From Vulcanimicrobiota bacterium (GTDB taxonomy: Bacteria; Vulcanimicrobiota; Vulcanimicrobiia; Vulcanimicrobiales; Vulcanimicrobiaceae), in the NCBI GenBank assembly GCA_003135555.1, contig PLCF01000051.1, positions 1 to 21,122 of the forward strand: 21,122 bases of DNA, read 5' to 3'. The notes beneath the pieces are model-generated. The model ran no database searches. It saw nothing but the letters and a program-made list of their open reading frames with translations, and had not been told where the DNA came from. This document shows positions 8,047-21,122 of the stretch, in pieces. The translations under genes were made by a program, and so were the position numbers. Numbering within the stretch: the stretch's first letter is position 1; each line of letters starts with the position of its first letter.

Positions 8047-9411
8047 CTGCCTGATCTGCGCGGCCTGCCGGCCGTCCACCGCATCCTCGACGAACCGCGC
8101 GTTGTGCGGTTCGTCGCGCTTTTGGGCGCATCGACCGTGAAGCGCCACGTCGACGCAGCGCTCGACGCCGCCCGAGCCGAGGAGCCGACGCCGCCGGCCG
8201 GCGCCGTCGTCGAGGACGTCCTGGCGCGCGCCTCCGCGGAGGCCCGGCGCGGGCTCGGGGAGGTTCTCAACGGCACGGGCATCCTGCTCCACACCAACCT
8301 CGGCCGCGCGCCGCTGGCCCGCGAGGCGCTCGACGCGATCGGGGACGCGACCGCCGGTGCCTCCAATCTGGAGTACGATCTCGACGCCGGTTCGCGGGGC
8401 TCGCGCTACGATCGGTTGGGGGCGCTGCTGCGCGCCGCAACCGGCGCCGAGGACGGCCTCGTCGTCAACAACTGCGCGGCTGCGGTCCTGCTGGTGCTCG
8501 ATACGTTCGCGCGCGCCCCCGACGGCTCGGCGCGTGAGGTGATCGTCGCACGCAATCAGCTCGTCGAGATCGGCGGCGGGTTCCGCTTGCCGGAGGTCTT
8601 GGCACGCAGCGGGTCGCGCCTGGTCGAGGTCGGCGCAACCAACAAGGTCCGAATCGGCGACTACGAGCGCGCGCTGGGCCCGAACACCGCGCTGCTGTTG
8701 CGCGCGCACCCGTCCAATTATCGCATCGAGGGCTTCGTCTCGGAGGTGTCGGGCGCGGAGCTCGTCGCGCTCGGCCGCCGCGCCGGGCTCCCGGTGGTCG
8801 AAGATCTTGGGAGCGGCGCGCTCCTCGATCTGCGCGCCTACGGTTTGCCGCGCGAGCGCACCGTGCAGGACGCCGTGGCGGACGGCATCGACCTGATCGC
8901 TTTCTCGGGCGACAAGCTTTTGGGTGGTCCCCAGGCCGGCATCATCGTCGGCCGCACCGCGCTCGTCAAACGCCTGCGCGCCAACCCGCTCTTGCGCGCG
9001 TTACGGATCGGCGCTCCGACAATCGCCGCGCTCGCCGCGACACTGCGCCTGCACCTCGATCCCGCCGGCCGCGAGCGCATCCCGTTCTACCTAATGCTCG
9101 CGACGCCGCTCGACGAGCTGCGCCTGCGCGCCGCGGCGCTGTGTGCGCAGTTGGAGGGTCTCGACGTGCGCATCGACGACGTGGCAGGCTACGTGGGCGG
9201 TGGTGCGCTGCCGCTTGCGCCGCTGAAATCGGTTGCCGTGGCTTGGCGCCCGGCGCGCGCCGACGCAAACGCGGCCGCGGCGCGACTGCGTGGCGGCGCG
9301 CCGCCCGTGGTGGCGCGCGTCGCAGGCGACCGCGTGCTGATCGACTTGCGCGCGATCCCGTCGCAACGCGACGGGGACGTGGCGGCGGCGCTCCGGGCCG
9401 CGGCGCCCTAA
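8047..9411 (+). CDS. selA: L-seryl-tRNA(Sec) selenium transferase
   Basis: NGTGILLHTNLGRAPL, SNLEYDL..G.RG.R, VVNNCAAAV, VEIGGGFRLPEV, EDLGSG, PLP-lysine motif FSGDKLLGGPQAG. The start is uncertain (CTG 8047 inferred; GTG 8104 is the first canonical start). Confidence 0.96.
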   Translation: MPDLRGLPAVHRILDEPRVVRFVALLGASTVKRHVDAALDAARAEEPTPPAGAVVEDVLARASAEARRGLGEVLNGTGILLHTNLGRAPLAREALDAIGDATAGASNLEYDLDAGSRGSRYDRLGALLRAATGAEDGLVVNNCAAAVLLVLDTFARAPDGSAREVIVARNQLVEIGGGFRLPEVLARSGSRLVEVGATNKVRIGDYERALGPNTALLLRAHPSNYRIEGFVSEVSGAELVALGRRAGLPVVEDLGSGALLDLRAYGLPRERTVQDAVADGIDLIAFSGDKLLGGPQAGIIVGRTALVKRLRANPLLRALRIGAPTIAALAATLRLHLDPAGRERIPFYLMLATPLDELRLRAAALCAQLEGLDVRIDDVAGYVGGGALPLAPLKSVAVAWRPARADANAAAARLRGGAPPVVARVAGDRVLIDLRAIPSQRDGDVAAALRAAAP

Positions 9412-9418
9412 CTCCGAC

Positions 9419-11281
9419 GTGCACGTCGTCGGCACGGCGGGTCACGTCGATCATGGGAAATCGTCGCTGGTGCGCGCGCTGACCGGAACCGATCCCGACC
9501 GCTGGATTGAAGAGCAGCTGCGCGGGATGACGCTCGACCTCGGGTTCGCGCATTTGCGCTTCGACGACGGGGTCGAAGCCGGGATCGTCGACGTCCCCGG
9601 ACACGAGCGCTTCCTGCACAACATGCTCGCCGGCGCGGCGGGGATGGACGTGCTGCTCCTGGTCGTCGCCGCCAACGAAGGCGTCCGTCCCCAAACGCTC
9701 GAGCACCTCGCGATCGTGGACTTTCTCAACGTGCGGCGGGCGATCGTGGTCTTGACCAAGCGCGATCTCGTCGACGATGCCGCCCTGGCCGAGGTCGAGC
9801 GCGAGGTGCGTGCGGCGATCGACGGAACCGTCGCGCAGGGCGCGCCGGCGATCGCGGTCTCCACCCTGAGCGGCGACGGGATCGACGCGTTGCGCGCCAC
9901 GATCCACGCGACGCTCGCCGCGTTGCCGCCACGCCCGGCCGGCGCTCCGGTGTTTCTGCCGGTCGACCGCGTCTTCGCCTTGCCCGGCCACGGCACGATC
10001 GTTACCGGAACGCTGATGCAGGGGACGCTGCGCGTCGGTGAGACGCTGCGGCTCGAGCCGCCCGGCCGCGCCGTACGGGTGCGCGCCCTGCACGTCTTCG
10101 GATCCCCGCGCGACGCCGTCGGCGCCGGTGCCCGCGTCGCGGTGAACCTGCCCGGCGTCGAGGTCGGTGAGCTGCGGCGCGGCGCGGTGCTCGGCGACGA
10201 CACGTTCGCCCCGAATGCGGCGCTGTCGGTGCGCTTTCGCGCGCTACCCGGTGCGGAGCGAATCCTGCACCGGCGCACGCCGGTGCGGGCGTATCTCGGC
10301 GCGGCCGAGATTCTGGGCACGCTGGTGTTCGACGATGCCGCACCACCGCCGGCGGCGACACCGGCCGGGGCGACGCTGCATCTGCGCCGCGCGACGACGA
10401 CCTATCCCGGCGAGGCCTTCGTGGTGCGCTCGGTCTCACCCAAGACGCTGCTCGGCGGCGGGACCGTCGGCGCCGGTGCGGTGGCGTCGTTCGATGCGGT
10501 CGCGCCCGACGTCGAGGCGGTCGCGAGCGTGCTCGCCGCGGCCGGGCTGAGCCCGCGTACCGCCGCCGAGCTCGGCGCACGCGCGAACGTGCGCGAAGAG
10601 CGGGCCGTCGAGATTCTGGCCGAGCTCGTCGCGAGCGGCTCGGCGCGGCGGCTGCAAAAGCCGGCCGGTTACCTCGACGGCGCGGCGGCCGACGCGCTGG
10701 CCGAGCGCATCGGCGCGTCGCTGCTGCGGCGTGAATCGGAATCGGCGTGGATGCTCGGAACCACCTCTCTCGCGCTGGCGCGCGAGCTCAGCCTCGACGA
10801 AGGTTTTCTGGTGCGCTTTCTGGCCGCTGAGGCCGAGGACGGGCGGCTGGCGGCGCGGGCGGGCTATTTCGCGACCGTGAGCCATCGGCCGCGCCTCAGC
10901 GAAGAACAGCGTGCGTTCTTCGAGCGCGTGGTCGTCGCCGACGCCGCGCAACCGCTCGTCCCCGTGCCGCTCGACGACGTCGTCGGCGAGCTGCGCCGAG
11001 CCCGGATCCCGGGGATCGCGCAGGCATTCGATACGCTCCTAGCGACCGGTGCGCTGGTCAAGGTCGGGGGCGACGTGTATCGGGGCGTCCAGATCGCCGA
11101 GATTCGCAAGCGCCTCGAGGCCGCCGTGCGCAGCACCGGGCCCATCACGATGTCCCGATTCCGCGACGCGGTCGGAACCACGCGTAAGTACGCCGTGCCG
11201 CTCATGGAGTGGTTCGACGCCACCGGTGTGACGGTCCGCGACGGGGACGTGCGCGCGTTGCGGCAAAGCGGCCTGCGTTGA
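9419..11281 (+). CDS. selB: Selenocysteine-specific elongation factor
   Basis: GTAGHVDHGKS, RGMTLDLGFA, DVPGHERFLHNMLAG, TKRD and C-terminal winged helix TRKYAVPLMEWFD; follows selA. Confidence 0.96.
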   Translation: MHVVGTAGHVDHGKSSLVRALTGTDPDRWIEEQLRGMTLDLGFAHLRFDDGVEAGIVDVPGHERFLHNMLAGAAGMDVLLLVVAANEGVRPQTLEHLAIVDFLNVRRAIVVLTKRDLVDDAALAEVEREVRAAIDGTVAQGAPAIAVSTLSGDGIDALRATIHATLAALPPRPAGAPVFLPVDRVFALPGHGTIVTGTLMQGTLRVGETLRLEPPGRAVRVRALHVFGSPRDAVGAGARVAVNLPGVEVGELRRGAVLGDDTFAPNAALSVRFRALPGAERILHRRTPVRAYLGAAEILGTLVFDDAAPPPAATPAGATLHLRRATTTYPGEAFVVRSVSPKTLLGGGTVGAGAVASFDAVAPDVEAVASVLAAAGLSPRTAAELGARANVREERAVEILAELVASGSARRLQKPAGYLDGAAADALAERIGASLLRRESESAWMLGTTSLALARELSLDEGFLVRFLAAEAEDGRLAARAGYFATVSHRPRLSEEQRAFFERVVVADAAQPLVPVPLDDVVGELRRARIPGIAQAFDTLLATGALVKVGGDVYRGVQIAEIRKRLEAAVRSTGPITMSRFRDAVGTTRKYAVPLMEWFDATGVTVRDGDVRALRQSGLR

Positions 11282-14200
11282 GCGGTCTTCCCCCGCCCCA
11301 GTCCGCCGCCGCTGCGCAGGCGAGCGGCGCCTCGATTCTCGACGCCGACCTGCGCGCGTTTCTCGAAACGTTGCCGCAGATCGTCTGGCGCACGACGGCG
11401 GACGGCTTGCACGACTACTTCAACGGGTTCTGGCACGACTACAGCGGGCTCACCCCCGAAGCGTCGCTGGGCGACCGATGGACCGGCGCGATCCACGCCG
11501 ACGATGCCGTGGCCGCGACCGCAGCGTGGCGAGCGACCGTGCGCGAAGAGGCGCCCTACGATATCGAGTTTCGCCTGCGCGGCCGCGGCGGCGCGTATCG
11601 CTGGTTTCTCGCCCGCGCGACGCCGCTGCGCGACGCGAGCGGTCGCATCGTGCACTGGTACGGCACGTGCACCGACATCGATGCGCAGAAGCGCGTCGAG
11701 GTGCAGTTCCGCGCCATCGCCGAGGCGATCCCGCAGATGGTGTTCACTGCGCTCCCCGACGGCAGCATGGAGTATCTCAACGCGCACGTGTACGACTACA
11801 CCGGGATCGAACGCGATCCGGCCGCGTGGTCGTTGCGCGCGCTCGTCCACTCCGACGACTTGGCAGCGATGTTCGGCGCATGGCGGGGTTCGATCGCGAG
11901 CGGCGATCCGTATGAAGCCGAAACGCGGCTGTTGCGCGCCGACGGCGCCTATCGCTGGTTCATCGTACGCGCGAGCGCGCTGCGCGATCCTGAGACCGGC
12001 GCGCTGACGCGCTGGTTCGGCACCTGTACCGACGTCGACGACCTGCACGGCGCCGCCACGCGCGACGCGTTCTTGGCCCGCGCCGACGAGCTCTTCGGCG
12101 TCGAGCTCGACCCTGAGGCGATCGTGCGCGCCGTCGCGCGGGCCGCGGTCGAGTCGTTCGCCGACTACGTATTCTTCGATCTCGCCGCCGAGGACGGGCA
12201 GCTGCGGCGTGCCGCGGTCGACCACCGCGACCCCAGCGGCCGAGAGCGGCTCCAACGTTCGCTGGGGGAAGCAGCGCCGGCGGAGCACCCGATCCGCCCG
12301 GTCTCGACCGCGTGGCGCAGCGGCGAGAGCGTGTTGGTGCCGCGCATCGACGCGTCATGGTGGCGGCGTGCGGCGATGGACGATGCCCACTTCGAGCGGA
12401 TGCGCGGCGAAGGGCTGTCATCGCTGATCACCGTGCTCATCACATCACGCGGACGGCGCTACGGCGTGCTCTCGTTCTGCCGCGCGCACGCCTCGCAGAG
12501 CTACGGTGATTTCGAGCTGGTGACCGCCGAGGAACTGGCGCGGCGCGTCGGTGCGGCGCTCGAAAACGCGCAGCTGTACCAGGAAGCACGCGCGGCGGCC
12601 GAAGCGCACCGCACCATCGCGGAGCGCGAGGCGTTCTACGCGCGGCTCGGCGAGGAGTTGGCCGAAACGCTCTACCTGCGCGAAACGCTCGACATCGCGA
12701 CGCGCCTGCTCGTGCCGTCATTCGCGGACTGGGCGGTGGTGAACTTGATCGACCAGGACGACGCGCTTTTCCTCGCGGCGTCCCATCATCGCGATCCCAC
12801 TCTGGACGCGCGGACGCGCCGCCTGCTCGACCTGCGCTACCTCGCCGCCGAAGCGCACGGCGGCTCGCCCGCGGTCGTGCGCACGAAGCAGCCCGTGATC
12901 TACGAGCACGTCCCGCAGGGCGGTATCGGTGCAGTGACGGGACCGTACCGCGAAGCGATCGGCGCGCTCGGCGTGACGTCGGCGGCGATCGTTCCAATCG
13001 CCTTTGGCGGTGCAGTGCGTGGCACGATCGCGATCATGTACGACCGCACCTCGGAGCGCCACTACTCTCAGGCCGATCTGCCGTTCTTCGTCGAGGTCGC
13101 GCGCCGCTTGTCGCCGGCGATCGGAAACGCCGAAGCGTACGAACGCGAGCGGCGGGTCGCATGGACGTTCCAAGCCGCCGCGCTCACGATGGACCTGCCG
13201 CGCGTCGCCGGGATCTCGTTCGACGCGCTCTACGAGCCCAGCCGCAGCGAGGCGCTCATCGGCGGCGACTGGTACGATGCGTTTCGCGTCGCCGACGGCC
13301 GAATCGTGCTGACCATCGGCGACGTGGCGGGCAGCGGGCTCGACGCGGCCGCGACGATGGCGGGGATTCGCCAGAGCCTGCGCGGCGCCGCCGCGATCAA
13401 CCCCGATCCCTCGGTGATGCTCGACGCCGCCGATCGCGTGCTGCGCTGGCAGGCACCCGAACGATTCGTGACCGCCTGGGTCGGGGTGCTCGATCCGGTG
13501 TGGGCGACGCTGATGACCGCGGGGGCCGGCCATCCGCCGCCCTTGGAGCGACGCGCGGATGGAAGCGTGCGCCAACTCCCGGCCGGCGGTCTGCCGCTCG
13601 GCCTGCGCGAGCGCGGCGGCGACGTGACGCGCCAGCTCGTGCTGGCCCCGGGCAGCGCACTGCTGCTCTACACCGACGGTTTGATCGAGGCCGGTCGCGA
13701 CGTGATCGCCGGCGAGGCGGCGGTCGCGCTGGCGCTGCGTGGGGCCGACGTCGAAACGGCACCGGCACGCGCGATCCATCAGGCCGTCCTGGGCGACATC
13801 GTGGCCAGCGACGACGTGGCGCTGCTCGTCGTCGCCTTTCGCGATTCGCTGTTTGCGCTTGGTGGCGAGCGCGGTGCGCAGCGCTGGACGTTCGATGTCA
13901 ACGACCGCGCTGCGGCGACGCAGGCGCGCACCGCGATGGTCGAGGTACTGGAACGGCGCGGCGTCGCCGAGCTCGAGCGCACGATCGCCGAGCTCATCTT
14001 CGCCGAGCTGATCGGCAACGTGAAACGGTACGCCCCCGGCCCCGTGGACGTCGCGCTCGATCTCAGCGGCGAGTTCGGCGTCCTCCACGTGGTCGATTCC
14101 GGCGAAGGCTTTCAGCACAACGCGCGCTTGCCCGCCGACGCGCTCTCCGAGAACGGGCGCGGCTTGTTCATCGTCGCGACGATCGCCGAAGAGTTCGCGG

Positions 14201-14295
14201 TGACACGCGTTCCGGGCGGCGGAGCGCACGCGCGCGCCGTGCTGCCGGGCCGCCTCGGGGGAGTCCCCGAACCCGCCTACACCAGCGCGAATTAG
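11278..14295 (+). CDS. Multi-sensor SpoIIE/PP2C phosphatase with anti-sigma-kinase-like HATPase tail (PAS-PAS-GAF-GAF-SpoIIE-HATPase)
   Basis: Two PAS/PAC repeats (YRWFL.RA.P.RD..G....WYGTCTDID), two GAF repeats, IGGDWYD / IGDVAGSG / AGHPPP / LYTDGLIE / DDVALL phosphatase motifs, and ELIGN...D.GEGF...GRGLFIV. TTG 11278 overlaps the selB stop. Confidence 0.88.
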   Translation: MSGLPPPQSAAAAQASGASILDADLRAFLETLPQIVWRTTADGLHDYFNGFWHDYSGLTPEASLGDRWTGAIHADDAVAATAAWRATVREEAPYDIEFRLRGRGGAYRWFLARATPLRDASGRIVHWYGTCTDIDAQKRVEVQFRAIAEAIPQMVFTALPDGSMEYLNAHVYDYTGIERDPAAWSLRALVHSDDLAAMFGAWRGSIASGDPYEAETRLLRADGAYRWFIVRASALRDPETGALTRWFGTCTDVDDLHGAATRDAFLARADELFGVELDPEAIVRAVARAAVESFADYVFFDLAAEDGQLRRAAVDHRDPSGRERLQRSLGEAAPAEHPIRPVSTAWRSGESVLVPRIDASWWRRAAMDDAHFERMRGEGLSSLITVLITSRGRRYGVLSFCRAHASQSYGDFELVTAEELARRVGAALENAQLYQEARAAAEAHRTIAEREAFYARLGEELAETLYLRETLDIATRLLVPSFADWAVVNLIDQDDALFLAASHHRDPTLDARTRRLLDLRYLAAEAHGGSPAVVRTKQPVIYEHVPQGGIGAVTGPYREAIGALGVTSAAIVPIAFGGAVRGTIAIMYDRTSERHYSQADLPFFVEVARRLSPAIGNAEAYERERRVAWTFQAAALTMDLPRVAGISFDALYEPSRSEALIGGDWYDAFRVADGRIVLTIGDVAGSGLDAAATMAGIRQSLRGAAAINPDPSVMLDAADRVLRWQAPERFVTAWVGVLDPVWATLMTAGAGHPPPLERRADGSVRQLPAGGLPLGLRERGGDVTRQLVLAPGSALLLYTDGLIEAGRDVIAGEAAVALALRGADVETAPARAIHQAVLGDIVASDDVALLVVAFRDSLFALGGERGAQRWTFDVNDRAAATQARTAMVEVLERRGVAELERTIAELIFAELIGNVKRYAPGPVDVALDLSGEFGVLHVVDSGEGFQHNARLPADALSENGRGLFIVATIAEEFAVTRVPGGGAHARAVLPGRLGGVPEPAYTSAN

Positions 14296-15554
14296 ACGAT
14301 GGCGATGCTCTTGCGGTAGTCCGCGGCGAAGATCGACTTGGGGATCATCGCGTGGACGCCGTTTTGCACGTCGACCATCTGGGTGATGCGGAAGTCGACG
14401 CCGATCGAGGCCAGCCCGTAGGCGTCGTCCCGGCTGAGCCCGGCCTTGTCGTGCAGGAAGTCGATAGTGTTGCGCAACGCCACGCGTAACGCGTCGTTCA
14501 CCGACGGATCGAGTCCCAGCGCGATCCAGTGCGTTGCGGTTTCGGCGAACGGCCACTTCGGGGCCACGTTCTTGTGCAGGATCACCTGCATCCGGACTTC
14601 TTTCATCGCCGTCTCGATCGCGGTGAGGTTCACCTCGCCGTCGCCTTGCAGCGCGTGCGAGTCGCCGGTGAAGATCAACGCACCGGGATGGATTACCGGC
14701 ACGAACAGCGACGAGCCCGCGGTCAAGTCTTTGAGGTCGATGTTGCCGGCGTGCTTGCCGGGCGCGACCGAGCTGACCGCCTTGTCGCCCTCCGCGGCGA
14801 TGCCGATTGTTCCCTGAAACGGCTTGAGCTCGAGGCGAATGCGATCGTTGAAGGCGACGTACTGCTGCGCGGGATCGAGCTTGAAATAGTGGACGTGACC
14901 GTCGGGAAACTCGTCGGGCAATGTCCCCGTCTTGATCGTCGCGCCCGGGTTGTGGAAGTTCGCGCCGAAGCCGACTGTCTCGAGGCGCAGGAACCGGATC
15001 TGCACCGTGTCGCCGGGCATAGCGCCTTTGACCGCGATCGGTCCGATGATGCTGTGCACGCCGCGCCCCGGACTGTTCCGGCGCATGTTCGCGAGCTCGT
15101 CGGCGGGCACGCCGGGTTGAAGCTTGTTGAGGAAATGGGTCCAGGTGTTCTCGTACACGACGACGTCGCCGGAATCGACGCTGAGGATCGGCGCCTTGGC
15201 GGGATCGAAGAGGCCTTGAACGACCGTGTCGTTGTTCGACGGCACGACGTGCGTGCGCCCGAGCGCGACCGGCTTTACCGTCGACGTCCAGTCGTACGAG
15301 GAGTTACCGGCGGTCGGGGCCGCCGATGTCGTGTCGGGCAGCACCGTGTCGGCCAGCGCGAACGCAGCGGCGGCGCCGCCGATTCTCAGGGCGCCGGCGC
15401 GCGACACGCGCCAGCCTTCGTAGCGCTCCTCGACCTCGGCGCCGTCGACCGCGTCGTGCGCGCGCAGCTCGCGCCGGCGCTTCTCGTCGCTCAAGAATCC
15501 GGTCAACGCGTGGGAGAAACGCTTCCCGATCCAGTGCTCGCTGCAGCCGAACAT
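14292..15554 (-). CDS. Acetamidase/formamidase (FmdA/AmdA) family protein
   Basis: GPIAVKGAMPGD, PFQGTIG, HAGNIDLKDL..GS.LFVPV...GAL...GDSHALQGDGEV..TAIE, AYGLAS..VDFRITQMVD; ATG 15554 with GGAGGTGA RBS. Confidence 0.9.
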   Translation of the reverse strand: MFGCSEHWIGKRFSHALTGFLSDEKRRRELRAHDAVDGAEVEERYEGWRVSRAGALRIGGAAAAFALADTVLPDTTSAAPTAGNSSYDWTSTVKPVALGRTHVVPSNNDTVVQGLFDPAKAPILSVDSGDVVVYENTWTHFLNKLQPGVPADELANMRRNSPGRGVHSIIGPIAVKGAMPGDTVQIRFLRLETVGFGANFHNPGATIKTGTLPDEFPDGHVHYFKLDPAQQYVAFNDRIRLELKPFQGTIGIAAEGDKAVSSVAPGKHAGNIDLKDLTAGSSLFVPVIHPGALIFTGDSHALQGDGEVNLTAIETAMKEVRMQVILHKNVAPKWPFAETATHWIALGLDPSVNDALRVALRNTIDFLHDKAGLSRDDAYGLASIGVDFRITQMVDVQNGVHAMIPKSIFAADYRKSIAIV

Positions 15555-15634: not shown

Positions 15635-16303
15635 CTAGCGCGCGGCGCTCTCGCGCAGCGTCGCCAAGATGCGATCGCGGCTTCCGGTGAGGTGCGCGCT
15701 CATGCGCTCGACGGCCAGCTCGGCCTCGCCGTGGGCGACCGCGTCGGCGATCCCCTCGTGATCGTCCCAGGTGTCGACCGGATAGTCCCCGGCTTGGAAG
15801 TACGCGTGCATCACGCGCATGATCTGCGACCACTGCGCTCCCAGGGCGGCGACGAGGTGCGCGTTGTCCGACGCCGCGGCGATGTCGGCGTGAAAGTCGC
15901 GGTCGAGCCGGAACAGCGCCGTCAGGTTCCGCGCCGCGATCGCTTGGCGCGCCTGCGCGTGGCGCTGCTTCGTCGCGCCTCGCAGGTCCGCAAAGCGCTC
16001 CGCCGCGCGCCGGAGCGCAAGCGATTCGAGTGCGAGCCTGAGCTCGTAGAGGTCGACGATGTCCTTGGGCGCCAGCGGCCGCACGATCGCGCCCCGGTTG
16101 GGGGTGATCACGACCAGCCCCTCACCTTCGAGCCGGCGCAGCGCCTCGCGCAGCGGTATGCGGCTCATCCCGAAGGCCTCGGCCAGCTCTTCCTGGACCA
16201 GGCGGGTGCCCGGAGCGTAGCGCCCGGTCAAGATCGCCTCGCGCACCGCGTCGACGAGGCCTTCCGAGCGCGGCTCCAAGCCCCGTGCGAGGTTCAATGC
16301 CAT
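15635..16303 (-). CDS. GntR family (FadR/FCD subfamily) transcriptional regulator
   Basis: REAILTG.YAPGTRL....LAEAFGMSRIPLREALRRLEGEGLV...PNRGA.V HTH, plus an FCD domain (D..FH..I...S.N..L...H..I..A). Confidence 0.93.
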   Translation of the reverse strand: MALNLARGLEPRSEGLVDAVREAILTGRYAPGTRLVQEELAEAFGMSRIPLREALRRLEGEGLVVITPNRGAIVRPLAPKDIVDLYELRLALESLALRRAAERFADLRGATKQRHAQARQAIAARNLTALFRLDRDFHADIAAASDNAHLVAALGAQWSQIMRVMHAYFQAGDYPVDTWDDHEGIADAVAHGEAELAVERMSAHLTGSRDRILATLRESAAR

Positions 16304-16306
16304 ACG

Positions 16307-16316
16307 ATTGTATACA
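16307..16316. promoter_or_regulatory. Putative GntR operator 1 (ATTGTATACA) next to the gntR start
   Basis: TGTATACA palindrome at 16309-16316; shares ATTGTATACA with site 2. Confidence 0.7.
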
Positions 16317-16330
16317 CCCGACAGGAGGGG

Positions 16331-16362
16331 TTGACCTCCCCCACCGTAAAATTGTATACAAT
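16331..16362 (+). promoter_or_regulatory. Putative sigma70-type promoter of the mutase operon
   Basis: TTGACC at 16331-16336, with TATACA (16355) or TACAAT (16357) downstream (spacer 18 or 20 bp); RBS GGAGGT at 16370-16375. Confidence 0.5.
16351..16362. promoter_or_regulatory. Putative GntR operator 2 (perfect palindrome ATTGTATACAAT)
   Basis: 12-bp perfect AT-rich palindrome in GC-rich DNA, overlapping the -10 region; TGT-N-ACA is typical of GntR-family operators. Confidence 0.75.
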
Positions 16363-16385: not shown

Positions 16386-18062
16386 GTGCAGACGACCGAG
16401 AAGACCATCGCCGACGAGCAGCGCGAGTGGGAGCAACTGACGCTGCTGCCCTTTACCGCACGCCGCCCCGAATCGCGTGAGGCGTTCCGCACCCAAGGCG
16501 GGGCAGTGCTCGAACGGGTCTACACGCCCGCCCACGTCGCGGACATCGACTTCAGCCGCGACATCGGCTTCCCGGGCCAGTTCCCGTACACGCGTGGGCC
16601 CTACCCCACGATGTACCGGGCGCAGCCGTGGACGATGCGCCAGATCGCCGGCTTCGGCACCGCCGACGACACGAACGCGCGCTTCCGGTTCCTCATCGCG
16701 CAGGGTCAGACCGGAATCTCGACCGACTTCGACATGCCGACGCTCATGGGCTACGACTCCGACGACGTGCGCAGCGAGGGCGAGGTCGGGCGCGAGGGCG
16801 TCGCGATCGACAGCGTCGACGACATGCTCGATCTCTACGCTGGGATCGACCTCGAGCAGATCAGCGTCTCGATGACGATCAACCCGTCGGCCTGGATCCT
16901 ACTCGCCATGTACCTCGTGGTCGCCGAAGAGCGCGGCTTCGACCGCACCAAGCTCTCGGGGACGATCCAGAACGACATCATCAAAGAGTACGTCGCGCAG
17001 AAGGAGTGGGTCTATCCGCCGCGACCGGCGATGCGCATCGTGCGCGACACCATCACCTATTCGGCGCAGCACCTGCCGCGCTACAACCCCGTCAACGTCA
17101 GCGGCTACCACACGCGCGAAGCGGGGAGCACGGCGATCCAGGAGGTCGCCTTCACCCTGGCGGCTGGGATCGCATACGTCGAAGAGGTCGTGAAGGCCGG
17201 GATCGACGTCGACGACTTCGCGCCGCGCCTGTCGTTCTTTTTCGTGTCACAGATCGACTTCTTGGAAGAGGTCGCCAAGTTCCGGGCCGCGCGCCGCGTC
17301 TGGGCGCGCGTCATGAAGGAGCGCTTCGGCGCGCGCAAGCCCGAATCGATGCGGCTGCGTTTCCACTGTCAGACCGCCGGCGTGTCGTGCACCGCACGCG
17401 AGCCGCTCAACAACATCGCCCGCACTGCGATCGAAGCGCTGGCCGCCGTTTGCGGGGGCGCGCAGTCGCTGCACACCAACGGCTACGACGAAGCCCTCTC
17501 GATTCCCAGCGAGCCGGCGATGAAGATCGCGCTGCGCACCCAACAGATCATCGCCGAAGAAGTCGGGATCGGCGGCACGATCGATCCGCTGGCCGGCTCC
17601 TACGCGCTCGAACGGCTCACCGCCGACATCGAGAAGGGCTGCTTCGACTACTTCGCTGAGGTCGACAAGCGCGGCGGCGTCGTGAAATGCCTCGAGGACA
17701 ACTACTTCCAGATGGAGTTGGCCGACGCGGCGTACGACCTGCACCGCCGCAAGGAGGCCGGCGAACGGCACATCGTCAGCGTGACGAAGTACCGCGATGA
17801 CAGCGCCAACCCGGTGGTCGAGCTGCACCACGCCGACGAGGGCGCGGCGGACCGGCAGCTGGCGCGGCTGCGCAAGACCAAGGCGGCGCGCGACGCGAAC
17901 GCCGTGAGCAGGGCCCTCGACGAGATCGTGCGGGTCGCGAAGACCGACGAGAACCTCATGCCGGCGACGATCGCCGCCGTGAAGGCGCGCGCGACCGGCG
18001 GCGAGATCGTCAACGCGCTGCGTCCCGTATTCGGGACGTACGTCGAGACGCCGGTCTTTTGA
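16386..18062 (+). CDS. hcmA: B12-dependent acyl-CoA mutase large subunit, 2-hydroxyisobutyryl-CoA mutase type
   Basis: [22 protein letters not shown] (Ile87 where MCM has Tyr89), [17 protein letters not shown] (Asp114), [14 protein letters not shown] (Gln205 where MCM has Arg207), SGYH.REAG, QSLHTN.YDEAL; no B12 domain in this polypeptide. Confidence 0.88.
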
Positions 18063-18982
18063 TCGCCCGCCGCGTGCACCGCGATCTGGCGCGGGCGATC
18101 ACGAGCGTCGAGAACGGCATCGCGGACTACCAGGTCACGGCGGCGCGGCTCGCCGCTCAAGGGCACCGCCGCGAGGGCGCGGGCCACGCCGCCATCATCG
18201 GCGTGACCGGTCCGCCCGGCGCCGGCAAGTCGACGCTGGTCGACCGGCTGATCGAGGGCTTCCGTGCGAACGGTGAAACCGTCGCGGTGATCGCCGTCGA
18301 TCCGTCGTCGCCGTTCACGCACGGTGCGGTACTGGGCGATCGGGTGCGCATGCAGCGGCACGCCGGCGACGCCGGCGTCTTCATCCGCAGCATGGCCTCG
18401 CGCAGCGCCGGCGGCGGGCTCGCGCCCGCGACTCGCGACGCGGTGCGGCTGGCCGATGCGGCGGGCTTCGACGTCGTGGTCGTCGAGACGGTCGGCGTCG
18501 GCCAAGTCGAGCTCGAGATCGTCGCCGTCGCCGACGTGATCGTGGTCGTCACCGTCCCCGCGCTGGGCGACAGCGTTCAGACGATCAAGGCCGGTTTGAC
18601 CGAGATTGCCGACATCTTCGTGGTCAACATGGCCGATCGGCCCGGCGCGAACGCGACCGCGGTCGACCTCAAGCACATGGTCCGCGAAGGCAAGCGCGAG
18701 ATTCCCGTGCTGCAGACCATCGCGCGCGACGGCACCGGCGTATCCGAATTGTTCGCGGCGCTCGGGGCGCGGCGGGGCGCCGAAGACTCGAACGCGGTTC
18801 GCGCGGTCCGCTTCGAGCTGGTGCGCCGCGCGCGCGACGAGGCGGTGCGCCACGCGCTGGCCGCGCTCGATTCACCCGATGCCGCGGCGATCCTCGAGCG
18901 GCTGCGAGCCCACGAACTCACGCGCAACGACGCGATCGATCTCTTGCTCCCCATGCTCGGAGGACCCGTTCATGCCCATTAA
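18059..18982 (+). CDS. meaB: MeaB/MeaH (ArgK) family GTPase chaperone of the mutase
   Basis: [66 protein letters not shown] overlaps the hcmA stop. Confidence 0.93.
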
Positions 18983-19403
18983 GGTACTCGTCGCCAAGCC
19001 CGGACTCGACGGCCACGACCGCGGTGCGAAGATCGTCGCGCGGGCCTTGCGCGACGCGGGGATGGAAGTGGTCTACACCGGCCTGCACCAGACGCCCGAG
19101 ATGATCGTCACCGCAGCGGTGCAAGAAGACGTCGACGTGGTCGGCGTGAGCATTCTCTCCGGCGCGCACATGACGATCTTTCCAAAGATCATGGCGCTGC
19201 TCAAGGAGCACGACGTCGACGACATCGCGGTCGTCGGCGGCGGCGTGATCCAAGAGGCCGACATCCCCAAGCTCAAGGCGCTGGGCGTACGCGAGATCTT
19301 CAACGCGGAGGCGACGACGCAAGAGCTGATCGACGGCATCGAGCGGATCGTCGGCGAGACCGGCCGGGATCGCTCGCGGCGCGAAGCCGGCGCGGCGCGG
19401 TGA
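18972..19403 (+). CDS. hcmB: Cobalamin-binding small subunit of the mutase
   Basis: [18 protein letters not shown] (DxHxxG), [17 protein letters not shown] 18972 with GGAGG RBS. Confidence 0.9.
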
Positions 19404-20785
19404 TCGACGCCGCGCCCGTCGCGTGGCCGCTCGCCTACGACCGGGCGTACCGGCCGCCGAGCGACGCGCCGTACTGGGACGCCGCGCTCGAGACGATCTC
19501 GGAGGACGAGCGCGCGAGCGTCATCCTCGGCAAGATCGGGCGCCTGATGGCCTGGGCGTACGAGCGCGCGCCATTCTACCGCACGCGCTGGCAGGCTGCC
19601 GGCCTCGAACCGGGTGACGTGAAATCGCTCGAGGACTTCGCGCGCGTTCCGACGATCGCCAAAGCCGACCTGCGCGCCGATCAGGCCGCGCATCCGCCGT
19701 TCGGGTCGTATTTGTGCATCGAGCCGGCTGAGATCGTCCGCATCCACGGAACCTCGGGGACGAGCGGCCGGCCGACGGCGTTCGCCTGGAGCCGCGACGA
19801 CTACGACCGCATCGCGGAGTCGCACGCGCGCATCATGTGGAGCTTCGGCCTGCGGCCCAGCGACACGGTGTTCGTCGGCTCGATCTTCTCACTCTACGTC
19901 GGCTCGTGGGGCGCGCTGGCCGGGATCGAACGGCTCGGCGCCGCGGCGTTCCCGTTCGGCGCCGGCGTCCCGGGGATGACGCTGCAAGCGGTTTCGTGGA
20001 TGGCGCAGATGAAGCCGACCGCGTTTTACGGGACGCCCTCGTACGCGTTGCGGATCGCCGAGACGGCGCGCGCCGAAGGGATCGACCCGCGCGACTTCGG
20101 CCTGCGCATCATGTTCTTCTCCGGCGAGCCCGGTGCGGGGATCCCGGCGACGAAGCGTCTGATCGAAACGACGTTCGGCGCGCGTTGCATCGACAGCGGC
20201 AGCATGGGCGAGGTCACCCCCTGGATGAACCTGTGCGAGTGCGAGCACCGTACCGGGATGCACCTCTGGCAAGACATCGTCTACACGGAGCTGCTCGATC
20301 CCGCGACGATGCGTCCGCTGCCGTACGGCGCGACCGGGACGCCGGTCTACACGCAGCTCGTCCGGCGCGGGCAGCCGATGATCCGGCTCGTCTCGGGCGA
20401 TCGGGCGGAGTGGACGAACGATCCGTGTCCGTGCGGGCGCACCTATCCGCGCTTCGGGCGCGGGATCATCGGGCGCATCGACGACATGCTCGTCGTGCGC
20501 GGCGAGAACATCTACCCGTCGGCGATCGAGGACGTGCTGCGCGAATTTGCCGAGCTGGGGACGGAGTTCGAGATCGTCGTCTCGCGTCCCAAAGCGCTCG
20601 ACGTCCTCACGATCTGCGCGGAGCTCGCCGGGCCGTGCAACGAAAACGAGCTGCGCTACCGCCTGGGCGCGCAGCTCAAGCGTCAGCTCGGCATCCGCGC
20701 TGAGATCGCGTTCGTCCCCAGCGGCGCGCTCGCACGCACCGATCTGAAATCCCGGCGGGTGCGCGACGAACGGTCTACGAGCTAG
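19400..20785 (+). CDS. hcl: Phenylacetate-CoA ligase family enzyme, probable 2-hydroxyisobutyrate-CoA ligase
   Basis: [39 protein letters not shown]. The segments W...YD..Y.PP....YW, HPPFG.Y.C, AHARIMW-like and [15 protein letters not shown]...AFPFGAG resemble Aquincola HCL as recalled; GTG overlaps the hcmB stop. Confidence 0.8.
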
Positions 20786-20795
20786 CCGCCGGCGC

Positions 20796-21122
20796 TCAGT
20801 GGTGCAGCGTCCCCCAGGCCAGCGACGTGATCTTCCACGCACCACCGGACTTCGCCAACACGAAGGTCCACGTGCCGACGTCCGGGACCCGCTTGCCGGC
20901 CATCATCGCGGTGAACGTGACTTGGGCGACCATGTATGCATGATCGCCGCTGACGTCGATGAAAGGCTTTGGCGCGATCGTGGTCTGAAAGCCGCTCAGC
21001 TTCGCCTGCGTGATGAACGCCTTGAACGCGGTGGCCCAGCGCACGCACGCGTCGGCGCCTTTCCACGAGTACGGCGGAAACTCGTCGACGACGGTCGCCT
21101 TCGCGGCGCAGTTCGCGCGCAG
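20796..21122 (-). CDS. NTF2/SnoaL-like fold protein, 5' part outside the window
   Basis: Open from the window edge: ATVVDEFPPYSWKGADAC..W...VSGDHAYMV....F.....G.WTFVLAKSGGAWKITSLAW. Confidence 0.7.
   Translation of the reverse strand: MRANCAAKATVVDEFPPYSWKGADACVRWATAFKAFITQAKLSGFQTTIAPKPFIDVSGDHAYMVAQVTFTAMMAGKRVPDVGTWTFVLAKSGGAWKITSLAWGTLHH

Follow-up and report, generated by a model that had tools for sequence, protein, structure and literature searches.

We analyzed a 21,122-nucleotide stretch of a Vulcanimicrobiota genome (the window, G000:C38:1-21122; genome of 3.57 Mb, 84% complete) that carries a four-gene hcm operon, predicted to activate and isomerize 2-hydroxyisobutyrate (2-HIBA), next to a divergent gene for a GntR-type regulator (Table 1). 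The original prediction had described four genes with overlapping stops and starts, and all four open reading frames are indeed present on the plus strand, with junction overlaps, in order, of 4 nt (TTGA), 11 nt and 4 nt (GTGA). Its gene inventory was incomplete in that the divergent GntR/FCD gene and two palindromic boxes had been overlooked. With hcl, hcmAB and meaH in a single operon and a GntR gene adjacent to it, the locus corresponds to an hcm gene cluster as defined in PMC7176365. The GC content of the hcm block (0.67-0.71) is like that of the rest of the window.

Table 1. Features of the hcm locus (positions in the window)
Feature	Position	Strand	Evidence or remark
gntR (GntR/FCD, FadR-type regulator, 222 aa)	15635..16303	-	Pfam GntR + FCD; divergent from hcmA
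Box 1, TGTATACA palindrome	16309..16316	.	5 nt upstream of gntR start; candidate operator
Box 2, TTGTATACAA palindrome	16352..16361	.	upstream of hcmA ribosome-binding site; candidate operator
hcmA, substrate-binding large subunit, 558 aa	16386..18062	+	4R3U_A 736 bits; Ile87, Asp114, Gln205
meaH, MeaB-family G-protein chaperone, 307 aa	18059..18982	+	TIGR00750 263 bits (cut-off 241)
hcmB, cobalamin-binding small subunit, 143 aa	18972..19403	+	DxHxxG at 13-18; 4R3U_C 153 bits
hcl, 2-hydroxyisobutyrate-CoA ligase, 461 aa	19400..20785	+	6HDW 550 bits

The best solved relative of the large subunit is HcmA of Aquincola (4R3U), which aligns over residues 8-558 at 736 bits, versus 445-466 bits for the methylmalonyl-CoA mutase (MCM) structures and 258 bits for IcmF. 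Identity is 59% to HcmA of Methylibium petroleiphilum PM1 (562 aa) and 61% to IbcP of Mycolicibacterium sp. ELW1. The codons singled out by the original prediction read as it had claimed (Ile87, ATC at 16644; Asp114, GAC at 16725; Gln205, CAG at 16998). The match that it saw to Ile90 and Asp117 of HcmA, with the same spacing, also holds: Ile87 and Asp114 align with the native Ile90 and Asp117 of PM1 HcmA and equal residues 101 and 128 of 4R3U chain A, which become 90 and 117 once its 11-residue tag is subtracted, an offset derived from the native N-terminus and the structure alignment. Ile90 is what we take to be the specificity residue of HcmA. The Ile87 position is Ile in 4R3U and Tyr in human MCM, and at the Gln205 column 4R3U also has Gln, where the MCM structures have Arg. 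Ten mutase positions compared with PM1 HcmA are all equal except Asn196 (Ala) and Val209 (Ile), and Asn at position 196 is also present in ELW1 IbcP. According to a reviewer's comment in supplement 1 of PMC11599936, Asp117 forms a hydrogen bond to the substrate hydroxyl; we expect Asp114 to bind the hydroxyl and to determine a preference for the S configuration. The split mutase architecture, a substrate-binding subunit with a separate B12-binding subunit that has DxHxxG, was confirmed.

In a tree of 39 rows (30 fetched loci, six plasmid references, two paralogues from the same genome and the query), HcmA falls in an Hcm clade with 100/100 support together with PM1 HcmA, ELW1 IbcP and Xaut_5021. 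Mutases whose three positions read Tyr-Ala-Arg, Phe-Ala-Gln or Leu-Leu-Asn lie outside it. These outgroups were typed by residue and sit on long branches whose order is unsure. The grouping with HcmA expected from the original prediction is thus found relative to these three types; the tree holds no RcmA row and no characterized row of MCM or isobutyryl-CoA mutase (ICM), and solved MCM and IcmF were compared with HcmA by score only. We take Xaut_5043 to be pivalyl-CoA mutase (PCM). Housekeeping mutase roles are covered in this genome, which encodes a Tyr-Ala-Arg mutase on C81 and a Phe-Ala-Gln mutase on C22 in addition to HcmA. The Tyr-Ala-Arg gene (C81:21059-22636) is a stand-alone large subunit, whereas the Phe-Ala-Gln mutase (C22:24905-28904) comes with a MeaB and a small subunit of its own. 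Two further B12 mutase matches of these kinds are found in most genomes of the family.

The ligase matches the HCL structure 6HDW at 550 bits, versus 215-231 bits for PaaK structures, and is 53% identical to PM1 HCL. Its Tyr166 and Ser241 correspond to Tyr164 and Ser239 of PM1 HCL, the surrounding pocket motifs are kept, and the pair is absent from two PaaK-like outgroups. A role of Tyr164 and Ser239 in the HCL pocket was reportedly described by Zahn in 2019. In a quick tree of 35 rows the ligase lies on the HCL side with the PM1, ELW1 and Py2 enzymes (SH-aLRT 99). Scores and tree both favor HCL over PaaK, and we assign the ligase, from its sequence, to the 2-HIBA-CoA ligases of the HCL type. 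HcmB is 55% identical to PM1 HcmB; its structure score alone is not diagnostic, because the 153 bits to 4R3U_C are level with the 153 bits for the Aeropyrum-type mutase domain 2YXB.

The original prediction had warned that such an operon would be annotated automatically as MCM plus PaaK. Consistent with this, NCBIfam passes a generic mutase domain model only, and the hcm genes of PM1, ELW1 and Py2 are labelled methylmalonyl-CoA mutase (family) and AMP-binding protein or phenylacetate-CoA ligase. It is nevertheless very improbable that the mutase is one for isobutyryl-, methylmalonyl- or pivalyl-CoA and the ligase one for phenylacetate. While PaaK models are the top NCBIfam matches of the ligase, they reach 264 of 700 and 256 of 646 bits required, below the PaaK equivalog thresholds, and the HCL and HcmA structures score far above PaaK and MCM, with both proteins separated in the trees. 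Overall, sequence, specificity residues, trees and gene context all agree with the identity first proposed, HcmAB/MeaH/HCL.

The second protein of the operon, MeaH, has a P-loop (GPPGAGKS at 51), a switch II (ETVGVGQ at 143) and switch III residues Asp171, Gln174 and Lys177, spaced as Asp182/Gln185/Lys188 of MeaB (PMC9974510). Residues 190-193 (window 18626-18637) read NMAD, where 6CUM and 3NXS read NKAD, so that MeaH departs from the (N/S)KxD base-specificity motif and still passes the cut-off of the MeaB family hidden Markov model. NMAD was found in all 25 lineage genomes among loci L081-L110 whose locus spans the motif; (N/S)K(A/C/S)D is found in 55 other rows and NMAD in one Mycobacterium paralogue. 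The lysine of NKxD stacks on guanine in Ras, and many GTP binders are without the motif (PMC11594714). As judged from these alignments, the Lys-to-Met change in the guanine-binding motif of MeaH is lineage-wide and new here. Five fetched lineage regions (L118, L119, L123, L124 and L125) have no meaH in the cluster.

The product of gntR is the genome's best match to the hcm-linked GntR proteins of PM1 and Py2 (~30% identity), and gntR adjoins hcmA in relatives too, so it is likely the regulator of the hcm operon. The gntR-hcmA gap of 82 bp contains TGTATACA at 16309 and 16353. This 8-mer has three copies in the 3.57-Mb genome (3.1 expected), two of them within the gap, and the 10-mer TTGTATACAA has a single genomic copy and is present in 16 of the 16 upstream regions printed. 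GTATAC is invariant in both boxes in 11 of 11 aligned gaps, and box 1 is invariant over TGTATAC; the aligned gaps come from related genomes, yet the bases flanking the boxes vary freely. The GTATAC core fits FadR-type operators. Box 2 overlaps a possible -10 element. A sigma-70 scan gave no consensus promoter, and a scan for promoters and terminators gave nothing above chance. We propose the boxes as a candidate operator for an hcm regulator, new here, to which the GntR protein would bind. In one relative (L145, G055:C15), TTGTATACAA boxes flank a lyase gene upstream of gntR-hcmA, which suggests that the same regulator may cover the lyase there. The third genomic TGTATACA lies inside a flagellar-type gene cluster on contig C60, and no further target of a wider regulon was found.

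Taken together, the locus is most probably a GntR-controlled catabolic operon for external 2-HIBA. HCL would use ATP to convert 2-HIBA to 2-hydroxyisobutyryl-CoA, and HcmA/HcmB would turn this by a radical 1,2-shift into (S)-3-hydroxybutyryl-CoA, with the GTPase MeaH loading and repairing the mutase with adenosylcobalamin. This ligase-mutase route and the (S) product are described in PMC7176365. GntR would probably sit on the two GTATAC boxes and keep both promoters repressed, to be released once the acid or its CoA ester binds. Genes for the later steps are present: a 3-hydroxybutyryl-CoA dehydrogenase gene on contig C58 (product 54% identical to the hcm-linked one of PM1) adjoins a thiolase gene, and an isocitrate lyase gene is on C55. 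Dehydrogenase and thiolase would yield two acetyl-CoA, which could enter the glyoxylate shunt, and the organism would grow on 2-HIBA scavenged from its environment with the help of salvaged B12.

Several observations weigh against this interpretation. No adenosyltransferase (PF01923, PF02572) and no CobS were found in the organism's own genome, and neither a transporter nor a 2-HIBA-producing route was found with the queries used. MeaH is without the NKxD lysine. No enzyme of the Vulcanimicrobiota subclade, which is sister to the other Hcm rows, has been characterized, and its substrate range could differ. The Hcm clade further includes rhizobial Val-Asp-Gln mutases that have other neighbors and no hcl, so the substrate cannot be deduced from clade membership alone. 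The missing adenosyltransferase is probably an assembly gap, because PF01923 is found in 38 of 43 congeners (15 of the 15 good ones). As to the substrate, it is unlikely that the same chemistry serves mainly another acid, such as 2-hydroxy-2-methylbutyrate, with 2-HIBA as one of several. The lineage branches deeply and has no characterized member, and a related lyase takes C4 and C5 acyl groups (PMC8760513), but the mutase positions are as in PM1 HcmA apart from the two named above and the HCL pocket is kept around Tyr166 and Ser241.

The original prediction had noted that no ether or alcohol oxygenase genes lie nearby, and this holds beyond the window, in the whole genome and in 43 congeners, for the queries used. 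In the 84%-complete genome there was no match to the isobutene monooxygenase subunits or to the GMC diol dehydrogenase of ELW1, and the best match to the Rieske oxygenase of PM1 is 31% only; MdpA and EthB were not searched by sequence. Across the genus, candidates for a tert-butanol Rieske oxygenase (24 of 44 genomes) match at family level only, the best at 190 bits and none full-length above 40%. The search with PF00848 missed the genome's own Rieske gene, which the PM1 query found at 31%. Diol dehydrogenase candidates (8 of 44 genomes) reach at most 38% over full length, and strong matches to a soluble di-iron monooxygenase were seen only in G201, which has no hcl. A route from cyanohydrin by nitrile hydratase and amidase is not supported, as the hydratase does not track hcl: its alpha subunit is in 27 of 44 genus genomes, comprising 11 of 24 hcl-positive and 15 of 19 hcl-negative congeners besides the organism's own. 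The own copy is split over three frames (G000:C96:17524-18020, L161-L163) and is either an assembly error or a pseudogene; the gene is intact in 26 congeners. One genome flagged as unpublished (G360) is part of the genus tallies, where it counts as lacking hcl and as having both the hydratase and the adenosyltransferase; the best diol-dehydrogenase match also comes from it. The organism's genome also has one gene of the fatty-acid-desaturase family, and its weak match in the di-iron monooxygenase search is a ferritin-like di-iron protein gene with a weak Phenol_Hydrox match, placed between genes for an aldehyde dehydrogenase and a ring-cleavage-type dioxygenase (L149, G000:C83:9807-13091).

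In five relatives (L111, L113, L115, L117 and L120; genomes G011, G117, G219, G165 and G293), a lyase gene lies between hcmB and hcl. The 580-aa thiamine enzyme (L111:10012-11757) scores 678 bits to the actinobacterial 2-hydroxyisobutyryl-CoA lyase 7PT1, while the next family reaches 223 bits. The Glu493 column is conserved in it; a catalytic role of Glu493 is described in PMC8760513. The hcl of the lyase-bearing loci is 52-54% identical to that of the window and belongs to a different clade, as if a lyase-hcl pair had replaced the native hcl in these five relatives. In G215 (L121), a foreign hcl stands without the lyase. Lyase genes were found in 13 of 401 phylum genomes, with an hcm gene or hcl adjacent in 9 of the 12 loci printed. 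Precedent for the pairing comes from the PM1 and ELW1 clusters, which contain lyases of 50% identity; PMC13188929 suggests that the lyase of ELW1 is a minor route. Because an enzyme specific for the same CoA ester entered the operon, the lyase provides independent support for the proposed substrate.

In a reverse scheme for the mutase, 3-hydroxybutyryl-CoA would be turned into 2-hydroxyisobutyryl-CoA in vivo, either for protein acylation or, in lyase-bearing relatives, as a link of acetone and formyl-CoA to central metabolism, and HCL would only recycle free acid. The scheme gains something from the reversibility of both reactions, from the lyase-mutase pair that PMC7176365 reports as proposed for growth of Desulfococcus biacutus on acetone, and from the fact that no source pathway for 2-HIBA was found. 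We nonetheless consider it quite improbable, since a dedicated ligase that spends ATP and a divergent repressor are arranged as in a catabolic operon, HCL is absent from the acetone-using strain according to the same paper, and the organism's own genome has no lyase orthologue (best match 246 bits, 35%, beside formyl-CoA-transferase-like genes).

The nearest named relatives are Vulcanimicrobiota/Eremiobacterota records at 81-92% identity. At least 44 of 400 other phylum genomes have a match of at least 58%, at least 19 of these among 32 congeners, and the loci returned from other genomes are Ile-Asp-Gln in 29 of 29 cases. hcl is present in 25 of 44 genus genomes (11 of the 15 good ones). The phylum-wide denominators for hcmA and the lyase include 12 genomes flagged as unpublished, none of which is among the positives. 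The 11 HcmA rows of the phylum form a clade of their own (100/99), sister to all other Hcm-type rows and ordered roughly by genus, family and order, with one row of another family nested inside. Within the genus the cluster is placed after selA-selB. This rough agreement with taxonomy and the shared site suggest that hcm has long been resident in the lineage. Three further family members (G126, G130 and G284) carry a PM1/Py2-like copy with another gene order, which represents a second acquisition; the order hcmB-hcl-meaH-hcmA is seen at loci L126-L129 (G126, G130, G284 and G313), from other genera of the same family.

Beyond the phylum, Ile-Asp-Gln mutases occur in Actinomycetota, Rokubacteria, Chloroflexota, Acidobacteriota and Pseudomonadota. 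Among the best 80 of 586 loci, 59 are of this type, and 50 of these 59 have hcl in the fetched flank, as compared with none of 19 Val-Asp-Gln loci. The Val-Asp-Gln mutases are rhizobial, conserved and nested in the HcmA clade on a long branch (L059, L062-L070 and L072-L080), and one of them (L157:3156-10054) stands with genes for an aminotransferase, an enoyl-CoA hydratase and another AMP ligase; their substrate may be other than 2-HIBA. We found no literature report of hcm in Vulcanimicrobiota/Eremiobacterota, with subscription papers and most supplements outside reach, and neither hcm-related word is present in the main text of the first-isolate paper, its supplements being outside the search. 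Within the literature searched, Vulcanimicrobiota is thus a new host phylum for hcm, a point on which the original prediction had advised checking.

The closest known systems are the hcm clusters of Aquincola tertiaricarbonis L108 and M. petroleiphilum PM1, which share the four genes and the divergent GntR gene as well as Ile/Asp/Gln in the mutase and Tyr/Ser in the ligase. In contrast to these, the present cluster belongs to a separate deep subclade, has NMAD in MeaH, lies after selA-selB among housekeeping genes rather than on a degradation plasmid, and is without adenosyltransferase, dehydrogenase and lyase genes. The gene order is hcmA-meaH-hcmB-hcl here and hcmB-hcl-meaH-hcmA in PM1, and the TGTATACA box is absent from the PM1 and Py2 gaps. 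Cluster 2 of the ELW1 ibc genes (ibcMNOP; PMC13188929) likewise comprises mutase, ligase, chaperone and a GntR/FadR regulator, and this hcm-type cluster is induced in that isobutene degrader. ELW1 adds isobutene monooxygenase, epoxide hydrolase, diol dehydrogenases and B12 synthesis, for which those queries gave no orthologues here. The lyase-HCL cluster of Actinomycetospora chiangmaiensis (AcHACL, 7PT1) uses the same ligase family and CoA ester, whereas only the mutase route is present in the genome studied here. RcmAB of Kyrpidia tusciae and Bacillus massiliosenegalensis carries out the same overall reaction with hcl and meaH linked; it is (R)-preferring and only distantly related to HcmAB (PMC7176365), whereas the query groups with HcmA and has the Asp117 equivalent.

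PMC7176365 already reports, for many strains, operons that combine hcl with meaH and either hcmAB or rcmAB, usually accompanied by GntR, and states that carriers come mostly from pristine habitats, which may point to an unidentified natural source. The cluster, its GntR gene and its occurrence in unpolluted habitats are therefore published, and with the pathway known, the additions here are the host phylum, the candidate operator and a minor variant of the chaperone. We suggest, tentatively and as a possibility short of probable, that Vulcanimicrobiota has an old HcmA/HCL lineage of its own, retained at a single chromosomal site in more than half of a soil and peat genus in which none of the known routes to 2-HIBA was found. 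Acidic soils poor in nutrients would then have had a steady natural supply of 2-HIBA, or of a C5 homologue, since long before fuel ethers came into use, and some members would have gained a second, B12-free exit by way of the lyase and a foreign hcl. If so, GntR and the two boxes would be a ready sensor with which to find the natural source, and GTP handling by the NMAD chaperone may differ from that of known MeaB proteins. The question of natural 2-HIBA origin raised in PMC7176365 is sharpened, not answered. 2-HIBA with B12 offers a concrete substrate for enriching a mostly uncultured phylum, and the divergent HcmAB and lyase sequences could serve engineering toward methacrylate precursors and one-carbon assimilation, biotechnological uses of hcm enzymes being treated in PMC2847961 and PMC11599936.

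A look-up of RNA data sets listed none that holds the locus, and three RNA runs yielded short, divergent pieces only, which are neutral as to expression. There are no tRNA or Rfam matches in the window. Upstream, selA-selB (window 8104-11281) is followed by a gene for a 1028-aa PAS-PAS-GAF-GAF-SpoIIE-HATPase protein (11209-14295) whose presence varies among relatives. Directly downstream of gntR is a minus-strand gene of the acetamidase/formamidase family (14292-15554), the product of which has an export-signal-like N-terminal stretch; it was not counted as an operon member, as it is near hcm in 5 of 20 fetched regions and missing in others. At the other end, a DUF4440/SnoaL-like gene on the minus strand (20796-21122) converges on hcl and is cut by the window end.

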